A stretch of DNA of 64,000 bases, taken from the NCBI GenBank assembly GCA_963711035.1, contig CAVQCN010000003.1, positions 398,290 to 462,289 on the forward strand, read 5' to 3'. Numbering within the stretch: the first letter of the stretch is position 1; each line of letters opens with the position of its first letter. Positions 1,794 through 61,011 of this stretch are shown here, piece after piece. The notes under the pieces are model-generated. The model ran no database searches. It was not told the origin of the DNA and was given only the letters and a program-made list of their open reading frames with translations. The translations under genes and the position numbers were made by a program. The DNA comes from an uncultured Chloroflexia bacterium (GTDB lineage: Bacteria > Chloroflexota > Dehalococcoidia > DSTF01 > WHTK01).

Positions 1794-2201
1794 CTAGGCT
1801 TCGAGGCGGTTGGCGAAGTACTTCTGCGGTTCGATGACGATGATCACACGCTCGCCGCCGGAGCGGGTTTGCGCCGGCCGGCTGCCGCCTCCGCCGCCTT
1901 GCCGCCCCGAGGCGAGGCGATCCTGATACGCCTCGGCGGCGCTGCCGCGGACGATGCGCGCCGTGCCGTAGACGGTGACCGCCTTCGGTCCGTCCGTCAC
2001 CAGCAGCGAGACCTGGCCGCGCTTGACCACGTTCTTCGCCTTGGCCGAGTCGTCCGAGGTGCTGATGGCGATGTCGTTGCCGTCGTAGTTGTAGGCGATG
2101 AGCGCCTGCTGCGGCGAGCCGTCTTTGCGCCCCGTCGCCAGCACGCCGAGACGGTGGCTCTTGAGGAACTCGCTTTGAATGTCGCTGGGTTGCGTCGTCA
2201 T
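1794..2201 (-). CDS. PPOX-class / pyridoxamine 5'-phosphate oxidase-family protein, probably F420-dependent (135 aa)
   Basis: C-terminal 135 aa of the 315-aa track ORF. ATG at 2199-2201. Family-typical block ...LATGRKDGSPQQALIAYNYDGNDIAISTS...VTVYGTARIV. The longer N-extension is rejected because it overlaps the paralog. Confidence 0.7.
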   Translation of the reverse strand: MTTQPSDIQSEFLKSHRLGVLATGRKDGSPQQALIAYNYDGNDIAISTSDDSAKAKNVVKRGQVSLLVTDGPKAVTVYGTARIVRGSAAEAYQDRLASGRQGGGGGSRPAQTRSGGERVIIVIEPQKYFANRLEA

Positions 2202-2218
2202 GTCGGCCTCGGTTCCGG

Positions 2219-2626
2219 TCAGAGAGTGGCGGGGTAGAAGCGCTCCGGCGTCAGCACGATCATGACGCGGTCCTCGCGCTTGAGGCGGTCGGCCAGCTCT
2301 GCCTCGGACTCGGGCGGTTGGCGCAGGGCACGCAGGCGCGCCGCATGCAGGCGAAACACCTCGTCCGGGTCGCGCACGACGCGCGCCGTCCCGTAGACGA
2401 CGAGCTGGTCGCCGCCGTCGATCACGGCCATCGAGACGGCGGGACGCGCGCTGATGTTCTTCGTCTTCAGCCGCTGCGCCCGCGTGCTGAAGACGATGTC
2501 GTTGCCGTCGAAGTGGTAGGTGATCAGCGTCTGCTGCGGCGTGCCGCTCCGGTTCGTCGTCGCGACGACGCCGTTGCGATGCGCCTGCAGGTAGCTGGCG
2601 ATGCTGCTGGGAACCTGGTTTGTCAT
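2219..2626 (-). CDS. PPOX-class / pyridoxamine 5'-phosphate oxidase-family protein (tandem paralog)
   Basis: 135 aa, ~45% identical to the downstream paralog (VATTNRSGTPQQTLITYHFDGNDIVFSTR...VVYGTARVV). Confidence 0.7.
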   Translation of the reverse strand: MTNQVPSSIASYLQAHRNGVVATTNRSGTPQQTLITYHFDGNDIVFSTRAQRLKTKNISARPAVSMAVIDGGDQLVVYGTARVVRDPDEVFRLHAARLRALRQPPESEAELADRLKREDRVMIVLTPERFYPATL

Positions 2627-2816
2627 CGTTGTGCTCCTCTAGTCCCCCCGAGTCAGAGACTCGACACAGTGGTTGCTCTAGCTGCTGCGCATCCCTCTCG
2701 GTCTGCTCCACTCCCGGTGGGAAGGAAGGAAAGGGGGACACCCATTCCCCCGCGTATGGCTTCCCCCCGCTACCCGCGGTTTGCCGCGGAACCCCGAACG
2801 TGTCTGACTCGTCATG

Positions 2817-3776
2817 CTAAACGTCGATCAGGACCTTGATCACGTTGTCTTCGCGGCTGGCGAACTGCCGGAAGGCTGCGTCCACGTCGTCGAACTTGTA
2901 GCGGTGCGTGACCATGTACGACAGGTCGATGCCGCCGCGCGCCGCCAGGTCGACGGCCGCCTGCACGGAGGGCACCACGTCGTTGGAGCGGCGGCTGTTG
3001 GTGACGACGATGGTCGGCAGCTTGTTGTACATCGTGAACCAGTCGAAGACGATCGGACCATCGCCGTGCGGCATGCCGAAAACGATGGCAGTGCCCTGCA
3101 GGCGCAGGATGTGAAACAGATCGTTCATGGTCTCGGCGTGGCCGCAGGCGTCGATCGCGACGTCGACCATCTCGCCCTTGGTGAGCTCGGAGACGGCTTC
3201 GACGAGGTCCTGCTTCTGGGGGTTGATGCCCGCCGTCGCTCCCAGGCTCTTCGCCACATCGAGGCGGTGGTCAACCACATCAGTGACGATGACCTCGCTG
3301 GCGCCACTGCGTACGAGCAGGTCGGTGAAGATGAGACCGATTGGGCCCTGGCCCAGCACGGCGACGCGCTTGCCAAGCACGCTGCCGGCGCGCTGCAGGG
3401 CGTAGATCACGGTGCCGACCGGCTGGCACATGACGCCGAGGTCGGGGCCGATGCTGTCCGGAATCGGTATCAGCAGCTCGGGCGGTACGGAGGAGTACTC
3501 GACCAGGCCGCCGGCGTAGGCGAGGGAGATGACGCGCTGGCCCTTCTGGAAGACGCCGTTGTAGCTTTCCTCGACGATGCCGGCGCACTCGTGGCACGGA
3601 TAGCCGGTGCGGCCGGGGTAGTCCTCTTCGGGCAGGACGCGCTCATAGGTCAGCAGGTCGCTGCCGCAGATCGAGAGGTGCTCCATGCGGATCAGCACCT
3701 CGCCCGGCTGGGCCTTGGGCATGTCGATGTCGAGAACTTCTAGCCGCTGGGGGCCTACGATGCGCGCTGCCTTCAT
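2817..3776 (-). CDS. Zn-dependent alcohol dehydrogenase, MDR family (threonine/sorbitol dehydrogenase-like)
   Basis: 319 aa. Has the CHECAG catalytic-zinc region (here CGSD...CHECAGIVEE) and a GxGxxG Rossmann motif (VLGQGPIGL). Confidence 0.8.
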   Translation of the reverse strand: MKAARIVGPQRLEVLDIDMPKAQPGEVLIRMEHLSICGSDLLTYERVLPEEDYPGRTGYPCHECAGIVEESYNGVFQKGQRVISLAYAGGLVEYSSVPPELLIPIPDSIGPDLGVMCQPVGTVIYALQRAGSVLGKRVAVLGQGPIGLIFTDLLVRSGASEVIVTDVVDHRLDVAKSLGATAGINPQKQDLVEAVSELTKGEMVDVAIDACGHAETMNDLFHILRLQGTAIVFGMPHGDGPIVFDWFTMYNKLPTIVVTNSRRSNDVVPSVQAAVDLAARGGIDLSYMVTHRYKFDDVDAAFRQFASREDNVIKVLIDV

Positions 3777-3866: not shown

Positions 3867-3997
3867 TTTAGCAGGGCGCTGAGAAACAGAGATAACGTCC
3901 TTCGCGAACCTCAGAATGAGCGTGATTCAAATTCCGCTCGTGGTGAGGCTCTCGAACCACAACTTTGATCGAGAACTGGTTTCTCAGCGCCCTGCTA
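3867..3997. repeat. Perfect 19-bp inverted repeat (TAGCAGGGCGCTGAGAAAC ... GTTTCTCAGCGCCCTGCTA) flanking a 91-bp spacer; MITE-like or long stem-loop
   Basis: Seen directly. The second arm abuts the stop codon of the selenoprotein gene. Confidence 0.6.
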
Positions 3998-4000
3998 GCG

Positions 4001-5233
4001 TTACTCGGGCCGCTTGGTGAAGGCGTTGGGGATGATCGCGGGCGGGCGAGCCTGCGGGTCCGTCTGAGCCGCGGCCAAGCGGTCGCGGACGTCGTAGAGC
4101 ACGGCGCCGAGACGCGTCTCGTGGAAGAGCCAGCGGTTCAACGTCGCCGAGTCGGGTGCGTGCTTGCCGGGCTGCATCGAGACGGCCTCGAGGTAGTAGG
4201 TCTTGAGGTCATCCGCGGCGGCGCGCAGGGCGGCCGGCACCGGCAGGCCCATAGCGGCGGGCGGCTCCACGTCGGCGCCCTTCGCGTAACTCGCGACGAA
4301 GCCTGCGAGCTGGTCGATGGCGCCGATCTCCACCTTGCTCAAGCCGAAGAGGGTGCGGTCGTGGACGTGGATGAACTCGTCATACCACGGCTTCAGCTGG
4401 CCGATCTCCGCCATGAGGCCGTCGATGGTGCGCTGGACCTCATCTTCGCTCTCGTCCACGGGCGGCAGCGGCAGCATGCAGGCCCAGTCCTCGTCGGAGT
4501 CGGCGGCGACCGGCGCGTCCTTGGGGAAGTCGTGCAGTACCGGTCCCGACGTCTCTTTCAGGGTGTCGAGCAGGGCGTGCAGCACCTCCATCTGGAACTC
4601 GGGCTCGTTCGGCGGCCCCAGAGGACGGCCCAGCTCGAACGGCACCCAGAGGGCGCGAGGCGGCTTCATCTTCTCCGTCTGCTCGCGGATCAGGCTGATA
4701 CCGGCGGTCGAGACTCCCTGCGCCTCGATGTGGTGGCTGAGCGTACCCACGGTACGCGTGCAGAGCGGTCAGACGGGTGTGAGGAGCACGACGTCGACGC
4801 CGTCCTCCTTCAACAACCTCCCTACTTCGGGGCCGGCTTCCACCAGGCGCGTGTAGTCCGTCGCGCCCATGAATGAGTAGTGCCACCGGGCCAGCGAGCC
4901 GATCTCGCCGCGCTCCAGCAGCGTGCGCAGGTGCGGCAGCGGGAAGACGACGTTGACGTCCTGCTGGAAGCCGGTGCGATCGAAGTTGATGCTGAGGTGG
5001 CTCATGATGAGCTCATCCGGGTCGATGTCGCCGGGGATGATGCGGTAGTCGGAGGCGCCGGGATTGAACCGCGCGTCCGAGCGGCGATGCAGGCCAGCCG
5101 TCGTGACGAGGGCGACGCGCGCCGTCTTGAGATCCGGGGGCGCCGGCGTCCACGGCGCCGAGTCGAACTCGGGCAGTGGCAGGCGGAGATAGCCTTCGGC
5201 GACTTCGGGGGGAAGGGACGAGAGCCTGACCAC
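4001..5233 (-). CDS. GrdB/PrdB-family selenoprotein B-like protein with in-frame UGA (Sec) at 4769-4771; GTG start with AGGAGG SD
   Basis: Track ORFs 4769..5233 and 4001..4750 lie in the same frame, separated only by a TGA and 6 codons. The joined protein reads ...KEDGVDVVLLTPV-U-PLCTRTVGT..., matching the Sec region I recall in GrdB (...AAILTST-U-GTCTRCGATM..., recalled from memory, not checked). Flanking similarity to the GrdB C-terminal half is extensive. Confidence 0.7.
4737..4763 (-). promoter_or_regulatory. Candidate bacterial SECIS hairpin downstream of the UGA
   Basis: mRNA UGA CCG CUC UGC AC-GCGUACC-GUG-GGUACGC: a 7-bp stem begins 11 nt after the UGA with a G/U-containing apical loop, plus a possible 3-bp lower stem. 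Confidence 0.5.
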
Positions 5234-5313
5234 GAGACCTCCTCAGGTGTCTTACTCAGCGACTCTACCACATGAGGCGCTGGGAAAAATACACCGCCAA
5301 CTTCGTTCCTTCC

Positions 5314-6258
5314 TCAAAACCGATCCGGATAGAGGCACTTCGCGAGCGCCTGCAGTGCCTGGACGATGTGCGGGCCGGGCTGGCTCACGAGGTCGGGATC
5401 GATAGTGCAGATGCGGTCGTTTTGCACGGCGTCGATCACGTCCCAGCCGGCGCGCGCCTTCACCGACGCTGCATCCACGCCGGCGTCCTCGTCCGCCAAC
5501 ACGATTACCTGCGGGTTGCGTTGCAGGATGACCTCGGCGGACAGCTGCGGGTACTCCTGGTCCGCGCCGGCGGCGATGTTCTGCGCCTTGAGCAGATGGT
5601 AGAGGTCGCCGATGAAGCTCTGCGGCGCTGCCGTGTAGTAGGTATTGTCGAGCTCGTGGTAGACACGCGGCCCCTGCCCGACGTCCGTGATCTTGCTGGC
5701 AAGGTCCTGGATGCCCTGCAGCATCGACATTTGGAGCTGGCCCGCCTCGTCACTGTGGCCTGTGATCCGGCCGAACAGGCCAATCTGGTCAACGACGCCA
5801 GCGACAGTCGTTGGGAGCGGCAGATACAGGACGGGGATGTCGAGCCGCTTCAACGCGTCGACCAGGCCGGACGGGTCGTACGCCGTGAAGACGAGGTCGG
5901 GCTTGTAACCGGCGATGGCCTCGACGTTGGGCTGGAACGAATCGAGCTCCGGCTTGGCGCTCGAGCCTTCCGGACAGTTGGCGTACGTGTCGACGGCGAT
6001 CAGCTGATCGCCGGCGCCGATCGCGCAGAAGATCTCGGTCGCGGCCGGCGAGAGCGAGACGATGCGCTGCGGCGTGGCGTCGAGCGTGAGCTGCCCGCCG
6101 CCCGGCAGATCGAAGACGGTTGGGGTCGCCGTGGCGGCCGGCGCCGTGGTCGTGGCGACGATGGTGGCGGTTGACGAAGTCGCCGCATGAGAGCCGCTGC
6201 TGCATCCGCCGAGCAGCAGGGCGAACAGAACGGCAAACCCGAAGATGGTGCGTTTCAT
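5314..6258 (-). CDS. ABC transporter substrate-binding lipoprotein, cobalamin/siderophore (BtuF/FecB-like, Peripla_BP_2) family
   Basis: Lipobox LLGGCSS. Sequence family typical of BtuF-like binding proteins. A cobalamin riboswitch sits upstream. Confidence 0.75.
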   Translation of the reverse strand: MKRTIFGFAVLFALLLGGCSSGSHAATSSTATIVATTTAPAATATPTVFDLPGGGQLTLDATPQRIVSLSPAATEIFCAIGAGDQLIAVDTYANCPEGSSAKPELDSFQPNVEAIAGYKPDLVFTAYDPSGLVDALKRLDIPVLYLPLPTTVAGVVDQIGLFGRITGHSDEAGQLQMSMLQGIQDLASKITDVGQGPRVYHELDNTYYTAAPQSFIGDLYHLLKAQNIAAGADQEYPQLSAEVILQRNPQVIVLADEDAGVDAASVKARAGWDVIDAVQNDRICTIDPDLVSQPGPHIVQALQALAKCLYPDRF

Positions 6259-6319: not shown

Positions 6320-6545
6320 TGAAAAACCCCGGCTCGAAGCTGGTGCCGGGGCGACAGTCACCCTCGTAGGGCGAGTCTCGGTCCGGGCCTTGTACCTCGA
6401 AGGCTCCTGACTTGTTGCTAAGGGCTGGCGACCTGGCTCTCCTCCACCCGAGCGGAGGACTACAGTTGCGGGACAGCGCCGGACTTCGACCGGCTTCGCA
6501 TTTACCCTCCCCGACCTTAATCGGGACCAAGGCACCCTTGAGCGT
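6320..6545 (-). ncRNA. Cobalamin (B12) riboswitch with expression-platform intrinsic terminator
   Basis: Minus-strand RNA contains GGUGCC..., AAGCCGGUCGAAGUCCGGCGCUGUCCCGCAACUGUA (core consensus) and a B12-box-like AGCCAGGUCGCCAGCC. A terminator hairpin CCCCGGCaccagcuucgaGCCGGGG+UUUUU lies at 6322-6351, then the SD AGGAG and ATG of the binding-protein gene. Confidence 0.8.
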
Positions 6546-6649
6546 TTCTCTTCAGTTGTGAAGGTTGCTGGCCGGATGATAGGCGGCAGGCCGATCTTCG
6601 TCAATGGCCGGTCGATGCGCTACTCTCGGGGGAGCGAAACGGAGGAAGC

Positions 6650-10435: not shown

Positions 10436-11545
10436 CTAATACCCTGCCCTGACGCTGGCGACAGCCTCGCGCAGGGCGGCAAGCACACGGTCCGTCTGCT
10501 CGGGCCGGCCAACGCTGAAGCGCAGGTGGTTCTGCAGTAGCGGCGTATCGAAGTAGCGCACCATGATGCCTCGATCCATCAGCGCCGTCTGCAGCCGCTT
10601 CGCCTCGACGCCGTCGATGCGGCAGAGGATGAAGTTAGCGCGTGACGGATACACCGTGAACCCGGTCAGCAGCGCCAGCCCCTCCGCCAGGCGCTCGCGC
10701 TCGGTCTGCACCGCCGCGACGCGCTCCTGCAGCAGCGCCAGGTCTTCGAAGCTGGCCAGGGTCGCCACTTCGGCCGCGACGTTGATGCTGTAGGGCTGCT
10801 TGATGCGCATCGCGATCTCGGCGACGGCCGGATCGCAGATCATGTAGCCGATGCGCAGACCGGCGAGGCCTGCCCACTTGCTCAGCGTACGGATGATGAT
10901 CAGGTTTGAGCGCTCTCGTACCAGGTTGACGTAGCTCTCACCGGCGTACTCGGCGTAAGCCTCGTCGACCACGACAGGCAGGCCGGTGGCGAGCAGCGCC
11001 TCCAGCTCCTGACGAGTCAGCAGGTTGCCGGTCGGGTTGTTGGGTGAGACGGCGAAGATCAGGCGTGTGCCCTGCGCCGCATCGAGCGACGCCTCGATGT
11101 CCAGCGCGAAGTCCTCGCGGCGCGTGACGTGAACCGCCTCCTGGCCCAGCGTGCCGGCGAGGAAGGAGTACATGCCGAACGTGGGCGGGAAGTCGAGCAG
11201 CGCCTGTCCGGGGCCGACGAAGAGGCGGCAGCAGAGCTCGATGAGCTCATCGCTGCCCGCGCCGGGCACGATCCACTCGGGGCCGTAGCCAACATAACGG
11301 CCCACAACCTCCCGCAGCCGCATCTGCTCCGGATCGGGGTAGATGTGGTAGCTGCGGTAGGCCGCCAGCGCTTCGAGCGCCTTCGGGGCCGGACCGTAGG
11401 GGTTCTCGTTGGCGTCCAGCTTGTCGATGCGCTCTACCGACACACCCAGGCGCGAGGCGAGCGCCTCCGGCGGCTGAACGGGTACGTAGGGCGGCGCCGA
11501 CAGTAGATGCGGCTGTACGAGATCGAGGAGACGGTCCGAGCTCAT
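10436..11545 (-). CDS. hisC: Histidinol-phosphate aminotransferase
   Basis: 369 aa; class II aminotransferase (LDANENPYGP, KW pyridoxal-lysine region). Confidence 0.9.
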   Translation of the reverse strand: MSSDRLLDLVQPHLLSAPPYVPVQPPEALASRLGVSVERIDKLDANENPYGPAPKALEALAAYRSYHIYPDPEQMRLREVVGRYVGYGPEWIVPGAGSDELIELCCRLFVGPGQALLDFPPTFGMYSFLAGTLGQEAVHVTRREDFALDIEASLDAAQGTRLIFAVSPNNPTGNLLTRQELEALLATGLPVVVDEAYAEYAGESYVNLVRERSNLIIIRTLSKWAGLAGLRIGYMICDPAVAEIAMRIKQPYSINVAAEVATLASFEDLALLQERVAAVQTERERLAEGLALLTGFTVYPSRANFILCRIDGVEAKRLQTALMDRGIMVRYFDTPLLQNHLRFSVGRPEQTDRVLAALREAVASVRAGY

Positions 11546-12871
11546 TGCGGCAGGCGCTCTTCGATGGCGCGCGCGTGGCCGACGAAGCCCTCGGCGCGGG
11601 CGATGACGGCGCCGGCCGGGCCGAGGTCGAAGACGCCATCGGAGCTGAGGTCGATGACGGTGCTGAACTTGAGGAAGTCCTGCACGCTGAGCGGCGACGC
11701 GAAGCGCGCGGCGCCGCCCGTCGGCATGACGTGGCTGGGTCCCGCCGTGTAGTCGCCGATCGCTTCCGGCGACCCGTCGCCGATGAAGACGCCGCCGGCG
11801 TTGCGCACCAGGCCTGCCAAGCGGTGCGCGTCTTGCGCCAGGATGCAGAGGTGCTCGGGCGCGTACTCGCTGGCCAGCTCGACCGCCTCTTCGATGGTCG
11901 CGGCCACGACGGCTCCGCCACGATTGGCGAAGGCGGCACTGGCCACATTGCGTCGCGGCAGCACGGCAATGCGCTGCTCCAGCTCGGCGGCGACGTTGTC
12001 AGCCAGCTCCCGCGAGTTCGTTATGAAGATGGGCGAGGCGAGCTCGTCGTGCTCTGCCTGCGCCAGCAAGTCGGCGGCGCACAGCGCCGGGTCGGCCGTC
12101 TCGTCCGCCACGACCACCGTCTCCGTGGGGCCGTAGAGCGAATCGATGCCCACATCGCCGAAGACGGCGCGCTTGGCCAGCGTCACAAAGATGTTGCCGG
12201 GTCCGCAGAATCTTGTCGACGCGCGGGAAGCTCTCCGTGCCGTAGGCGAGCGCCGCGACGGCCTGGGCGCCGCTGGCCGCGAAGACGCGGTCGGCGCCGG
12301 CCATGGCGGCTGCTGCCAGCTTGACCGGCGGCACGACGCCGTCCGGCCCCGCCGGGCTGACCAGGACGAGGTTCTCGACGCCGGCGACCTTGGCCGGGAT
12401 CAGCGTGTGCAAGACGGAGGACGGGTACACCGTCAAAGTGCCGGGGGCGTAGACGCCGACGTTGCGGATGGCGCGCACCTGCACGCCCAGGCCCTCGTCG
12501 ACGTAGGAGGCGAGCACGCGGCGCATCTGCCCCTCGTGGTAGCGGCGCACGCGGCCGGCCGCGAACTCCAGCGCGTCGCGCAGCTGCGGCTCGATGGCGT
12601 CGACGGCGGCCTCGACCTCGGCGCGCGGGATCTCGAAGCGCGGGTACGGGAAGCCATCGAAGACCTCGCAGTAGCGGCGCACGGCCGCGTCACCCTCGCG
12701 ACGCACATCGGCGATGATGCGCTGCACGCTCTGGCCAGCGGTAAGCTCCTCGCCAAAGACGGCCGCGGTCATCGAGCGGCCCGCTTCGCCCAGCTCAAGC
12801 TCGGATGCTGCGCCGCGGCGCAGGATGGTGCGTCGTGCTTCGTCGGCGCCGACGAAGATACGCAGCGTCAT
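11542..12871 (-). CDS. hisD: Histidinol dehydrogenase, interrupted by an apparent 1-nt insertion frameshift near 12196-12210
   Basis: Track ORFs 11999..12871 (N-part, ...AQAVAALAYGTESFPRVDKI) and 11542..12186 (C-part, TLAKRAVFGDVGID...) are adjacent frames. The expected ...DKI(L)GPGNIFVTLAKR... is recovered by removing one base from attctgCggaccc. Confidence 0.8.
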
Positions 12872-42104: not shown

Positions 42105-42512
42105 TCAGTCCCGCTTGGGACCAAAGAAGGGCATTTTGCGCGGATAATCCTTGGCATACGTGTTGCCCGGCGGCATCGCGTCCATCTGGTTGTAGCGGCC
42201 GATGACCTCGACCCAGCGTGAGAGGTAGCTGGATGTGACCTCGTAGCGGAAGAAGCGCGCCTTGCCGCGAATCTCCGGGTTCGGCTCGTTCTCCGAGAAG
42301 TGGTCGATGAGCTTGCCGCGCAGGCCGTAGCGGGCACGGCTACCGGCGTAGCCGACGTAGAGCACGCGCATCGACTCGTCGGCGATCTCGTAGACGCCGT
42401 TGCTGCCCGAGAGCTTGGCGGCGGCGGGCGTCCAGAGGGGCGTGCCCTCGTAGTTGCGCCAATCCTTCCATGGCATGCGAATCTGCCAGCTGGCGCGGTC
42501 GACGTTGGTCAT
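42105..42512 (-). CDS. Hypothetical protein with GIY-YIG-like motif
   Basis: 135 aa from ATG at 42510-42512; GVYEI...VLYVGYAG...LRGKLIDH. The track N-extension is rejected. Confidence 0.4.
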   Translation of the reverse strand: MTNVDRASWQIRMPWKDWRNYEGTPLWTPAAAKLSGSNGVYEIADESMRVLYVGYAGSRARYGLRGKLIDHFSENEPNPEIRGKARFFRYEVTSSYLSRWVEVIGRYNQMDAMPPGNTYAKDYPRKMPFFGPKRD

Positions 42513-43740
42513 GGTGCAGTCCTTTCGACTGGGAGAACGGTGGCGCCGGCCTCGACAAGGGCGTCGATCTCCGCCTCGGTCATGCCGAGGAGGTCGCGCA
42601 GCACCGTTTCGGTGTGTTCGCTTTGTTGCGGGCCGCGTCGTGAGACGATGCGTGAGTGACGCGCCGTCCAGCCGGCGCGGCTGACGCGCAGAGTTTGGCC
42701 GTCGCCCATGTCGATTGCGTTGAAGGCGTTGCGATGCAGGTACTGAGCGTCCTCCGCGATCTCGGCAGTACTCAGTACGGCACCGGCCGGCACGCCGGCC
42801 TGCTGCAGCAGGTGCATCGCCTCGATGTGGTCTTGTGTCGCCGTCCAGGCCGTGATCTCGGCGTCGAGGCGGTCCTCGTTGCGCTTGCGGTCGACGGCTG
42901 TAGCGAAGGTGGGCTCGGTGGCGAGGTCCGGACGGCTCATAACGTTGCACAGCGCCGTCCATTCCGCATCGTTCGTCGCCGTGATCGCGAGCCACTTGTC
43001 GTCGCCGCGGCAGGGGTAGATCGAGTGCGGCGCCAGCATCGGGTCGCGGTTTGCCATGCGCTGGTCGACGCGGCCGTTGAGCGCGTAGTCGAGCACGTAC
43101 TCGCCGACGAGCTGCGTCTCGCCGTCGCGCATCGCCACCTCGATCATCTGCCCCTCGCCCGTCTTGCGTCGGTGGTAGAGGCCGGCCATGACGGCAAGGG
43201 CGGCGTGGACGCCGGCGTTGTAGTCGCAGTAGTAGTTGCCGGGCTTGAGGGGAGGCTTGTCCGGGTAGCCCGTCAGGAACGAGAGGCCGCTCATAGCGTC
43301 GATGCCGGGGCCGTAGGAGGTCATGTTGGCGCGCGGGCCGGTCCGTCCGAAGGCGGGCATGGACACGGAGATGATGCCGGGGTTGATCTTCGCCAGATCT
43401 TCGTACTCCAGGCCCCAGTTACGCATGACGCGCGGGCTGAAGTTCTCGATGACGACGTCGCTGATGGCGACGAGGCGTTTGATTACGTCACGCGCTTCCG
43501 CCGTGCCCATGTCGAGAGCAATACCGAGCTTGCTGCGGTTGCGCTCCTGGAAGCTGGACCAGTGGTTCGTGCTGCCCCAGCCATCGGCCGGCGCCGTGGG
43601 GCGGGCTGCGCGTGTGCTCGACCTTGATCACCTCGGCGCCGAGCTCGCCCAGCAGCGACGTGCCGACCGGGCCTGCGACCACGATCGTGAAGTCGAGGAC
43701 GCGGACGCCAGCCAGTGGCGGTACGGAAGCGTCGACGCGC
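42509..43740 (-). CDS. CoA transferase family III (CaiB/BaiF) protein with apparent frameshift near 43590-43640
   Basis: The N-terminus MRVDASVPPLAGVRVLDFTIVVAGP...GAEVIKVE is in one frame. The rest (...FQERNRSKLGIALDMGTAEARDVIKRLV...) is in the adjacent frame. ATG overlaps the upstream TGA. Confidence 0.7.
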
Positions 43741-44947: not shown

Positions 44948-46077
44948 CTAGAAGTCCTGCTCGAACTTGCCGGGCTGCACCGAGCCGTAAGCCAGGTCGC
45001 GAGCCATGATCAGCCGCTGGATCTCGGACGGACCTTCGCCGATGCGGCGGATGCGCAGCTCGCGGTACCAGCGTTCGAAGGGCATGTCCTTGGTCATGCC
45101 GTAGCCGCCGTGGATCTGCATCGAGCGGTCGACGACCCGGCCGGCGGCCTCCGTCGCGTACACCTTGGCCATCGCGGCTTCGAAGCGGAAGGGTTCGTTG
45201 TTGTCGAACTTCTCGGCGGCGGTGAGGATCAGCCAGCGCGAGGTGCGGAGGTCGATCTCGTTGTCGACGAGCATCCACTGGATTGCCTGGCGGCTGGCGA
45301 GCGGCTCGCCGAAGGTGACCCGGTTGCGCGCGTACTCGACCGCCATGCGGTGCGCCGCGACGGCGACGCCGATGCCGGCGGCCGCATAGGTGATGCGGTT
45401 ACTGCTGAGACGGGCGTTGGCGTTGGCGAAACCTTCGCCTTCCTTGCCGATGAGGGCGGAAGCGGGCACGCGCATGTCGGTGAACGACAGTTCGGTCGTG
45501 TAGTGCGAGCGCAGCACGTGAATCAGAGCGGCGCACCTCGAACCCAGGGGTGTCGGTGCGTACCTTGAAGGCGCTGATGCTCTCACGGCCTTGCGTATCG
45601 CCGGTGCGGGCGTAGACGGTGCCCCAGTTCGCGGTGTCGGCGCGTGAGTTGAAGACCTTCGAGCCGTTGATCACGTACTCGTCGCCGTCGCGCACGGCGC
45701 GGGTGCGGATGGCTCGGCCGGGGTCGGAGCCGCCGGTAGGCTCCGTCAGGCCGATGAAGCTCTCGCCCGTATACTCACCGTCGCCGCCTTCCTCCTCCTC
45801 AGCCTCGTCGCCGCCAAGGCGGAAGAGGCCGTAGCAGGGGTGGTAGAGGCCAGCGCGGTGCTGCGCCGCCTCCTCGACCATGAACACCTTCGTCTTGACA
45901 TCGAGGCCCTCGGCGCCCGGCAGGCCGGTCGATTCGGCGATGGCGCGCAGACGCTCCTCTTGCTCCTCCGGCAGCTCATAGGCGTCGGCGTCGAGCTCCG
46001 ACTCCTCCAGCGGGACAATCTCCTCCCGCACGAAGCGCCGGATCGTGGCGCAGATCATCTTCTGCTCTTCGGTCATC
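44948..46077 (-). CDS. Acyl-CoA dehydrogenase with apparent frameshift near 45510-45560
   Basis: The N-half (MTEEQKMICATIRRFVREEI...SFIGLTEPTGGSD...YVINGSKVF) and C-half (...TTELSFTDMRVPASALIGKEGEGF...QIHGGYG...) are in adjacent frames. Confidence 0.75.
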
Positions 46078-49433: not shown

Positions 49434-49509
49434 GCGGGGGTAGCTCAGTTGGTAGAGCTCCTGCCTTCCAAGCAGGTTGTCGCGGGTTCGAGTCCCGTCC
49501 CCCGCTCCA
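49434..49509 (+). tRNA. tRNA-Gly (anticodon UCC)
   Basis: 76 nt cloverleaf: acceptor GCGGGGG/CCCCCGC, D arm GCTCagttggtaGAGC, anticodon stem CCTGC/GCAGG with loop cuUCCaa, T arm GCGGGttcgagtCCCGT, discriminator U, encoded CCA. Confidence 0.9.
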
Positions 49510-59862: not shown

Positions 59863-61011
59863 TCAGTCGGCGAGGCCGTACATCTGGTTGAGTTCTCGAT
59901 AGCGCTCCGGATCCAGCTCTCGGCCCGCGAGGCCGGGGAAGTCGGGCGCGTAGCGATGGGCGCGGAACACGGAGTTGCGCGCGCCGACGCGTGAGCTGAA
60001 CGGGCTGATCCATTCCCAGACGATCTGGCCGCGCTGGGTTACCTCGAAGATACGCCCCGTGCCGCCCTCGCAGATGAGCGTGTTGCCGTTGGGCTGTCGC
60101 TCGGCGCCTGAGATGTGACTGCTGAAGAACTGCGCCTCCGGCTCGGCGACGTATCGCCAGACCGTGCTGCTGTCCTTCGGGTTGACCTCGATGACGCTGG
60201 AGCGCGGGCCGCCGCGACGGTGCATGCCGTTGTCGAAGATCTGGATGTTGCCGTTGGGCAGGACCGTGGGGTGGTGCTGGTGCGACAGGTTGGGGAAGGT
60301 GTACTTCCAGATCACCTTCTCGCGCGACGGGTCGATCATGCCGACCAAGCTGTTGTTGCGGCAGGAGAAGACGAGGTCGCCGTCGCGGTCCATGGCGATG
60401 CCGTTGAGGTGCGTCCATTCGTTGCGCGCCTCCAGCGGGCAGATGGCGTCTCGCACCGGGTCGAGCAACTGCCACAGGTGTGTGCGGCCGACCTCCTTGC
60501 CGCGGGCGTCGATCTCGAGGATGTCGTCGGAGATCAGCTTCGGTTGCGGCCGCTCGCGAAAGCCGCCCCGCACGCGCTTTGCCATCTCTTCGTCCAGCTC
60601 GATCCACAGCGGCAGCAGGGTGTTGCCGTTGGGCAGGCGCATGAAGTCATGGTGGGTGGCGACGTTGTCGTAGGACCAGAGGACGTTGCCGTCCCAGTCC
60701 ATCTCCTGGATGCGCGTGTAGCCGCCGCCCAGGGTCCGGATACGTTGCTCGAAGGTGCCTGGCGCGGCGCCGCTAGCCGGGCGCAGCGGGATGTCCGTAT
60801 CGGTGCCGGTGACGAGCAGGGTGCCGTTGGATTGCAGGCGTCCGTACCAGCTTCGCAAGCCGGGGAGGCTCCAGCGATGCACGATGCGTCCCGCCATGTC
60901 CAAGAGGTAGCTCCCGTCGCCGCCGCTCGGCGTGATCAGCGTGTAGCCCTTGAACGAGTGCGGCGCAAAGTGATGCGTGAGGCCCGTAGGCCGAAATGGC
61001 GACCATCCCAT
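59863..61011 (-). CDS. Arylsulfotransferase (ASST)-family beta-propeller protein
   Basis: 382 aa; repeated LPNGN.. blade motifs typical of ASST. Confidence 0.6.
   Translation of the reverse strand: MGWSPFRPTGLTHHFAPHSFKGYTLITPSGGDGSYLLDMAGRIVHRWSLPGLRSWYGRLQSNGTLLVTGTDTDIPLRPASGAAPGTFEQRIRTLGGGYTRIQEMDWDGNVLWSYDNVATHHDFMRLPNGNTLLPLWIELDEEMAKRVRGGFRERPQPKLISDDILEIDARGKEVGRTHLWQLLDPVRDAICPLEARNEWTHLNGIAMDRDGDLVFSCRNNSLVGMIDPSREKVIWKYTFPNLSHQHHPTVLPNGNIQIFDNGMHRRGGPRSSVIEVNPKDSSTVWRYVAEPEAQFFSSHISGAERQPNGNTLICEGGTGRIFEVTQRGQIVWEWISPFSSRVGARNSVFRAHRYAPDFPGLAGRELDPERYRELNQMYGLAD

Follow-up and report, generated by a model that had tools for sequence, protein, structure and literature searches.

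Evidence for a stand-alone PrdB-like selenoprotein gene, split in two by annotation, in an uncultured Chloroflexia bacterium

The stretch of DNA analysed here, called the window throughout, comprises 64,000 nucleotides of contig CAVQCN010000003.1 from the genome assembly of an uncultured Chloroflexia bacterium. On its minus strand the region 5233..4001 is, as we consider highly probable, one gene for a selenoprotein of 410 residues belonging to the GrdB/PrdB superfamily, in which the UGA at codon 155 is decoded as selenocysteine (Sec) with the help of a hairpin directly downstream and in which a PrdB-like core is joined to a helical C-terminal domain, without the partners PrdA, PrdD and PrdE. 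In the public databases the gene appears as two unnamed hypothetical proteins (P0121 and P0001). We regard it as a genuine stand-alone PrdB-like selenoprotein gene that has been mis-split in these databases.

The two open reading frames (ORFs) concerned, 5233..4769 (154 amino acids followed by TGA) and 4750..4001 (249 amino acids), form one frame on the minus strand. A preliminary description of this DNA had stated that they are separated only by a TGA and six codons, and translation confirms this: the region 5233..4001 reads as 411 codons with a single internal stop, the TGA at 4771..4769, and a terminal TAA. Counting from the GTG at 5233 the joined product has 410 residues with Sec as residue 155, and the joined sequence quoted earlier, LLKEDGVDVVLLTPV-U-PLCTRTVGTLS, is exact. 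The chosen start is backed by the syntenic homologue in locus L001, whose N-terminus MVRLSSLPPEVAEGY is nearly identical. Between the TGA and the GTG at 4750, where translation could next begin, six codons encode PLCTRT, and two residues encoded in this seemingly intergenic stretch, Cys158 and Arg160, are invariant across the aligned family members. Because of these invariant residues, because 82 of 82 related loci carry the TGA and because the cysteine-containing homologues are continuous, the case for a single frame with a conserved TGA goes far beyond chance.

For the family assignment the joined protein was searched against profiles with Cys in place of U. The match to the Pfam model GRDB (PF07355) scored 43 bits, the cut-off being 22 (E=4.8e-11; residues 18–152 on profile positions 206–345 of 347), and is significant, in line with the preliminary description. 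It stops two residues short of the Sec, as would fit a Sec located just past the end of the Pfam model. The best NCBIfam match was the D-proline reductase protein PrdB (TIGR04483, E=1.3e-35), with residues 26–228 aligned to positions 18–221 of 238; at 122.9 bits it falls far short of the equivalog cut-off of 300. The models of GrdF, GrdH and GrdB were matched from profile positions 203–208 only and with 45–60 bits against cut-offs of 602–800. The subfamily model TIGR01918 gave 53.4 against a cut-off of 65.45, and TIGR01917 was also below its cut-off.

These matches support the earlier view that the protein is a member of the GrdB/PrdB family which lacks the GrdB N-terminal domain and has a PrdB-like core. 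They shift its emphasis in one respect, as the nearest characterised relative is PrdB and not GrdB. With the GrdB, GrdF and GrdH selenoprotein B proteins (PF07355, TIGR01917/TIGR01918) the window protein shares a PF07355 score above the gathering threshold and the UxxC motif. Unlike these proteins it has no counterpart of the N-terminal ~200 residues, being matched from profile position ~204 onward only, and unlike GrdB it lacks the third Cys of the UxxCxxC motif (PMC13188914), since its own motif reads U-P-L-C-T-R-T. The full GrdB length of ~435 amino acids including the N-terminal half is not reached, and the single-domain length of PrdB (~240 amino acids) is exceeded, as the window protein has 410 amino acids with residues 232–410 lying beyond the PrdB end. 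Judged on its sequence and by the curated criteria, the protein is a superfamily member with a PrdB-like core that is neither PrdB nor GrdB. No solved structure related by sequence to the joined protein was found.

Real PrdB sequences allowed us to inspect the Sec column directly. A tblastn search of plasmid records gave RefSeq-annotated prdB genes as references, from Ligilactobacillus salivarius, where prdB is part of the canonical prdA-prdB-prdD-prdE-racemase operon, and from Peptoclostridium acidaminophilum. Both reference frames contain one internal TGA, in each case at codon 151. In the joint alignment the TGA of the window gene falls exactly into the PrdB Sec column (KKDGVDAAVFTAG-U-GTCHR in PrdB and KEDGVDVVLLTPV-U-PLCTRT in the window), and three full-length homologues show Cys in the column of Sec155. 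The central claim of the preliminary description, namely that the UGA occupies the catalytic Sec position, had been made by comparison with GrdB; at the level of sequence alignment it is now verified against the annotated PrdB proteins and the Cys homologues.

A first protein search yielded 977 matches. About 29 of the best 120 are 385–426 amino acids long and continuous with Cys at the position in question (motif PV-C-PxCTR), and about 90 of these 120 are fragments of 230–270 amino acids which start just past the TGA position. Such fragments are the signature of Sec forms that gene callers have cut in two. When one genome per species was scanned, at least 579 relatives were obtained, and we examined the loci of the best 80 of these together with three loci from an exact look-up. 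The TGA is present at the identical codon in all 82 related loci as well as in five tandem paralogues. The carriers belong to the Chloroflexota/Dehalococcoidia, the Desulfobacterota, the Alpha- and Gammaproteobacteria, Entotheonella and the Sumerlaeota, and include many marine metagenome-assembled genomes (MAGs) and one Geobacter MAG. The closest ones are found in the Chloroflexota/Dehalococcoidia with an identity of up to 62%. Close homologues of the window protein therefore have Sec and more distant ones have Cys at this codon, and the pairing of a conserved in-frame UGA with Cys in homologues, by which selenoproteins are recognized, is found here.

Bacterial selenocysteine insertion sequence (SECIS) elements follow immediately after the UGA, and the small loop at their apex includes a G (PMC1088965). 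In agreement with this description the window gene has a downstream hairpin with a 7-bp stem and a loop of the type GUN. All Sec forms carry this hairpin at +15..+31 from the U of the UGA, with the consensus GCGCGCC-GUN-GGCG(C/G)GC and with invariant G and U in the loop. Among 85 distinct sequences 89% of the cells are paired and six of the seven pairs have changed on both sides; the hairpin of the window itself bears two compensatory pair changes. None of 500 shuffles reached the observed values, and slid registers pair in 30–55% of the cells only. The median hairpin energy is −9.3 kcal/mol in the Sec forms as opposed to −1.9 to −2.9 kcal/mol in four Cys-form genes, and no comparable hairpin was found in these four genes. 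An extension of the lower stem (columns 10–12 with 34–36) was considered and rejected, as it is poorly supported and 34–40 of the 85 sequences are unpaired there.

Some loci contain tandem gene pairs. The two genes lie ~1.2 kb apart in L026, L031, L039, L057 and L075 (for example at 10460 and 11689 in L026), and each copy has its own TGA and its own hairpin. These loci are proteobacterial, mostly from Alphaproteobacteria.

Two simpler explanations of the TGA have to be weighed. The codon could be a genuine stop, either between two separate genes or in a pseudogene truncated at codon 155, as gene callers and databases imply by giving two proteins. We hold this to be very improbable: the six codons after the TGA encode invariant catalytic residues, the Cys-form homologues are continuous, and the TGA is kept across phyla together with a covarying hairpin. 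The codon could also be an assembly or sequencing error for TGC or TGT, i.e. for Cys. The assembly is in fact not error-free, as hisD is frameshifted in it and several other genes seem to be truncated. These defects are indels and not substitutions, however, every close relative independently shows the TGA, and the window gene possesses the hairpin specific for the Sec forms with pair changes of its own, so that such an error appears extremely improbable. Reading of UGA as a general sense codon was rejected, since other genes of the window end in TGA and the aligned residue of the homologues is Cys.

Several observations nevertheless weigh against our interpretation or limit it. The window harbors neither a tRNA-Sec nor a homologue of SelA, SelB or SelD, which would also suit a genuine stop; the hisD frameshift concerns the same assembly; the stem of the hairpin overlaps the strongly conserved peptide TRAVGG, such that coding constraint contributes to its conservation; no neighbour is conserved in more than 8 of the 82 loci and none points to a substrate or a reductant; and the literature searched holds no biochemical characterisation of the PrdB-like two-domain subfamily. 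A SelD search gave, among its best 120 matches, none on a contig with the 793,867 bp of the contig in question. As to the missing Sec-insertion genes, this machinery adjoins the gene in relatives. A selD gene that passed the equivalog test lies ~1–7 kb from the selenoprotein gene in 8 of the 82 loci and in three phyla, selB is found near the gene in five loci and tRNA-Sec likewise in five. We infer that Sec is probably inserted in the source organism as well.

The arrangement of the Sec-insertion genes in single loci is as follows. In L021 (5304–11173) a SelA-like ORF, tRNA-Sec, selB, selD and the selenoprotein gene follow each other in this order; the SelA-like ORF was recognised by eye from its motifs. 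In L021 (5304–11173) and L006 (6654–11173) the Sec-insertion genes are located directly upstream of the selenoprotein gene in one block. In L077 (5370–7589) and L061 (4112–6430) SelD is part of a long ORF of ~740–770 amino acids; a scan of the L077 ORF shows a fusion of SelD with a pyridine nucleotide-disulfide oxidoreductase domain at the N-terminus (TIGR03169 and selD). ARAGORN reported an odd tRNA with a two-base anticodon at 816–913 of L077. Within the window a second selenoprotein candidate, the TGA at 59863..59865 on the minus strand, was rejected as an ordinary stop between two adjacent genes, which by eye look arylsulfotransferase-like and amidohydrolase_2-like. This was the only other pair of long ORFs in the same frame (59865..59863), and no other candidate selenoprotein gene was found in the window.

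The C-terminal domain, announced in the preliminary description as an extra domain of ~170 amino acids, is present and comprises ~180 amino acids. It has no Pfam match at E<=10. A search of 1.84 billion representative proteins with this domain gave 377 matches; the 150 of them that are listed consist of post-UGA fragments and one full-length Cys form, and no other architecture occurs among these 150. A structure was modelled with AlphaFold 2 (AF2) for the Cys homologue P0011, which is 44% identical to the window protein and has the same motif CPLCTRT. The model has a predicted local distance difference test score (pLDDT) of 93.6 and a predicted template modelling score (pTM) of 0.92. It predicts a Rossmann-like alpha/beta core and an all-helical part from residue ~257 onward. 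The Cys150 equivalent to U is placed at a strand-to-helix turn and Cys153 in the first helical turn. As modelled, this placement of the U/C-x-x-C motif at the N-terminus of a helix following a strand is the classic geometry of a redox motif.

In order to look for the partners of PrdB, we used the L. salivarius proteins as tblastn probes. PrdA, PrdD, PrdE and the proline racemase gave no match in the window and 86 related loci (~1.29 Mb), and the PrdB probe matched all 87 sequences. The prd operon, with PrdA and PrdD/PrdE alongside PrdB, is thus found neither in the window nor in these loci. No grd, prd, trxB or sel gene is present among the window ORFs scanned, which are mostly housekeeping or catabolic genes (his and pur genes, GlgE, PBP, CoA-transferases). 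The stand-alone status of the gene, with none of the prdA, grd or trxB partners nearby, had been correctly described before; this includes grdA, grdC, grdD and grdE, whose absence is a further difference to GrdB.

The possibility that the gene encodes a canonical PrdB subunit of D-proline reductase, acting with a PrdA proprotein whose gene lies in another part of the genome, has to be judged on these results. The likeness is considerable: TIGR04483 is the best family match, the identity to the L. salivarius (WP_080550217.1) and P. acidaminophilum (WP_148296006.1) proteins is 33–35% over ~200 residues, the Sec codon occupies the same column within a U-x-x-C-x-R motif, both proteins have the same predicted secondary structure in the surroundings of the active site, both lack the GrdB N-terminal half, and the Joint Genome Institute (JGI) names some Cys homologues 'D-proline reductase (dithiol) PrdB'. 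On the other hand, the score is far under the equivalog cut-off, 180 C-terminal residues have no counterpart in PrdB, the motif is PV-U-PxCTR instead of AG-U-GTCHR, the shape of the SECIS hairpin differs, and the partner genes of the real prdB operon including the racemase are missing in all loci searched. We therefore think that a canonical PrdB is very unlikely. Two further explanations concern the neighbourhood. One ties the enzyme to cobalamin: on the minus strand, which also carries the selenoprotein gene, a riboswitch for cobalamin (RF00174, 40.6 bits, 6554..6406), preceded by a sigma-70-like promoter (6604..6576), is followed by a btuF-like binding-protein gene (6258..5314) and, after a gap of 80 nt and with no terminator called between, by the selenoprotein gene. 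In L001 and L004 the same layout recurs with cobT, cobS and cobU inserted. A co-transcribed enzyme might then act on corrinoids, for example by nucleophilic removal of the upper ligand, or might be a B12-independent alternative enzyme that is repressed by B12. Yet this arrangement is seen in the window and in L001 and L004 only, and the latter two may be one lineage because they have identical riboswitch scores and the same gene offsets. The riboswitch is absent in five other Chloroflexota loci checked, no cobalamin cluster recurs among the 82 loci, and a conserved element that contains TGnTAGAGT and adjoins the selenoprotein gene on its upstream side, irrespective of the preceding gene, suggests that the selenoprotein gene has its own promoter. 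A link of the enzyme to cobalamin is accordingly unlikely. The other explanation starts from the selD genes found nearby and proposes that the protein acts in selenium metabolism, for example in releasing reduced selenium or delivering it to SelD, which would explain why it adjoins selD, selB and tRNA-Sec. Adjacency of a selenoprotein gene and Sec-insertion genes would, however, be expected without a functional link, 74 of the 82 loci do not show it, and the Cys-form homologues are situated among transporters, TauD, P450 and dehydrogenases. A role in selenium metabolism thus seems highly improbable.

With the stand-alone PrdB-like selenoenzyme as the preferred interpretation, a mechanism can be proposed by analogy to PrdB that begins with U155: as selenolate, this residue would attack a small substrate at an electrophilic atom and expel a leaving group. 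Cys158 would then attack the selenium, by which the reduced product would be released and a Se–S bond (selenenyl-sulfide) would be formed. This bond could be re-reduced by a dithiol such as thioredoxin or by the near-invariant Cys252. Because no pyruvoyl-bearing partner is encoded nearby, the substrate probably does not need activation as an imine, or the C-terminal domain supplies the binding. Extending this, one may imagine a self-contained selenoenzyme, and not a subunit of a proline or glycine reductase, whose C-terminal domain, with Cys252 and the motif D-x-K-x-x-Y-x-E, replaces PrdA or GrdE in binding or activating the substrate. Such an enzyme would reductively cleave a compound for which no pyruvoyl group is required, such as an osmolyte of the quaternary ammonium or sulfonium type; or, given the riboswitch and the corrinoid-salvage genes in the Dehalococcoidia lineage, it could take off a corrinoid's alkyl or upper ligand. 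We regard this extension as speculative and doubtful.

The features of the gene are compiled in Table 1. The possible extended −10 element lies in a stretch of ~36 nt that is kept between the window and L001 despite the different upstream genes (btuF-like in the window, cobU in L001). From its sequence TGgTAGAGT may possibly serve as promoter; a consensus promoter scan of the window called no promoter at 5262..5270.

Table 1. Features of the PrdB-like selenoprotein gene (positions in the window)
Feature	Position	Strand	Remarks
PrdB-like selenoprotein gene, complete	4001..5233	-	410 codons including Sec155; GTG start 5233; TAA stop 4003..4001
In-frame UGA, proposed codon of selenocysteine 155	4769..4771	-	Aligns with internal TGA of annotated PrdB and Cys of full-length homologues
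Codon of Cys158, partner of Sec155 in UxxC	4760..4762	-	Invariant in window protein, two real PrdB and three Cys forms
SECIS-like hairpin GCGUACC-GUG-GGUACGC	4741..4757	-	Starts 12 nt after UGA; 7-bp stem
PrdB-like catalytic core, residues 26–228, predicted Rossmann-like alpha/beta fold	4550..5158	-	
Family-specific C-terminal domain, residues 232–410, predicted helical	4004..4540	-	Near-invariant W250, C252, D342-x-K-x-x-Y-x-E
Shine-Dalgarno-like GAGGAGG	5238..5244	-	4 nt upstream of GTG start; read from sequence
TGgTAGAGT, possible extended -10	5262..5270	-	Within ~36-nt conserved stretch upstream of gene

The neighbourhood was compared by all-against-all clustering of the ORFs within −7/+8 kb of the TGA in the 82 loci. 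The recurrent neighbours are selD, a heterogeneous cluster of zinc-dependent alcohol dehydrogenases (ADH), a SufC-like ABC ATPase, a short-chain dehydrogenase/reductase (SDR), a luciferase-like oxidoreductase and a putative helix-turn-helix (HTH) regulator; except for selD and ADH these were named by eye. The surroundings of the Cys-form genes contain SDR and PNPOx-like genes in addition to those mentioned above. In the window, a Zn-dependent dehydrogenase gene (2817–3776, minus strand) and a PNPOx-like (FMN-binding) gene (1794–2741, minus strand) are located downstream of the selenoprotein gene, and likewise in L001 and L004. In the gammaproteobacterial L077, too, an ADH-type gene is the immediate downstream neighbour, and L085 has a PNPOx-like gene upstream of its Cys form. 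These ADH and PNPOx-like neighbours may be redox partners or a coincidence.

This type of gene is not new, as catalogues have included selenoproteins of the PrdB type, with pfam07355 and UxxC, from 2005 onward (PMC1088965; PMC2398784). The Sargasso Sea survey of 2005 lists a 'proline reductase PrdB' (pfam07355, UxxC) with 42 Sec sequences and 1 Cys sequence (PMC1088965), and the Global Ocean Sampling (GOS) survey of 2008 lists 235 Sec and 110 Cys sequences under the same name (PMC2398784). In both surveys it is among the most abundant selenoproteins of aerobic ocean samples (PMC1088965; PMC2398784). A comparative study of 2006 names Anaeromyxobacter and Geobacter as carriers of a 'proline reductase' selenoprotein (PMC1794560). 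Like the survey family, the family of the window gene is dominated by Sec forms and found in many marine MAGs as well as in the Geobacter MAG, and matched by description it most likely corresponds to these 'PrdB' entries. The surveys treat their entries as proline reductase without discussing a missing PrdA or a C-terminal domain (PMC1088965; PMC2398784), and we found no paper in the literature searched that notes the missing PrdA together with the extra C-terminal domain. Since PrdA is missing, the family of the window gene is almost certainly mislabelled as 'proline reductase'. The Cys homologues annotated as 'glycine/sarcosine/betaine reductase selenoprotein B family protein', for example P0004 from Falsiroseomonas selenitidurans, have the same two-domain architecture and are 35–44% identical to the window protein over nearly the full length. 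Unlike the window protein they have Cys in place of Sec and no downstream hairpin, and they occur in varied catabolic and transport contexts.

The mis-splitting concerns most of the relatives: the ~90 fragments among the best 120 matches and, for the C-terminal domain, 149 of its best 150 representatives are truncated sequences, mostly post-UGA fragments. A dedicated family model for the two-domain Sec architecture would correct thousands of annotations. The family extends across at least five phyla, often lies beside Sec-insertion genes and is probably one of the most abundant selenoprotein families of the ocean. Knowing its substrate would explain a substantial share of the selenium use by aerobic and marine bacteria.

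Some further observations were made in the window. Immediately past the stop codon of the selenoprotein gene, 91 nt are framed by the arms of a perfect inverted repeat of 19 nt (TAGCAGGGCGCTGAGAAAC; 3869–3997). As RNA this element has a folding energy of −64.2 kcal/mol (z = −5.6). It occurs only once in the window, and L001 lacks it at the corresponding place; a terminator, a structured RNA and a small mobile element all come into question. The hisD gene (11545–12865, minus strand) is split between two frames at ~12209–12213 as judged against the L001 orthologue, and an acyl-CoA dehydrogenase gene (44948–45586) and a CoA-transferase gene (42509–43510) look N-terminally truncated, which suggests indel errors of the assembly or pseudogenes. 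A tRNA-Gly(TCC) gene is located at 49434–49509. Between 54001 and 56000 the G+C content falls to 0.575, compared with ~0.65–0.68 elsewhere, and this stretch could be an acquired island.

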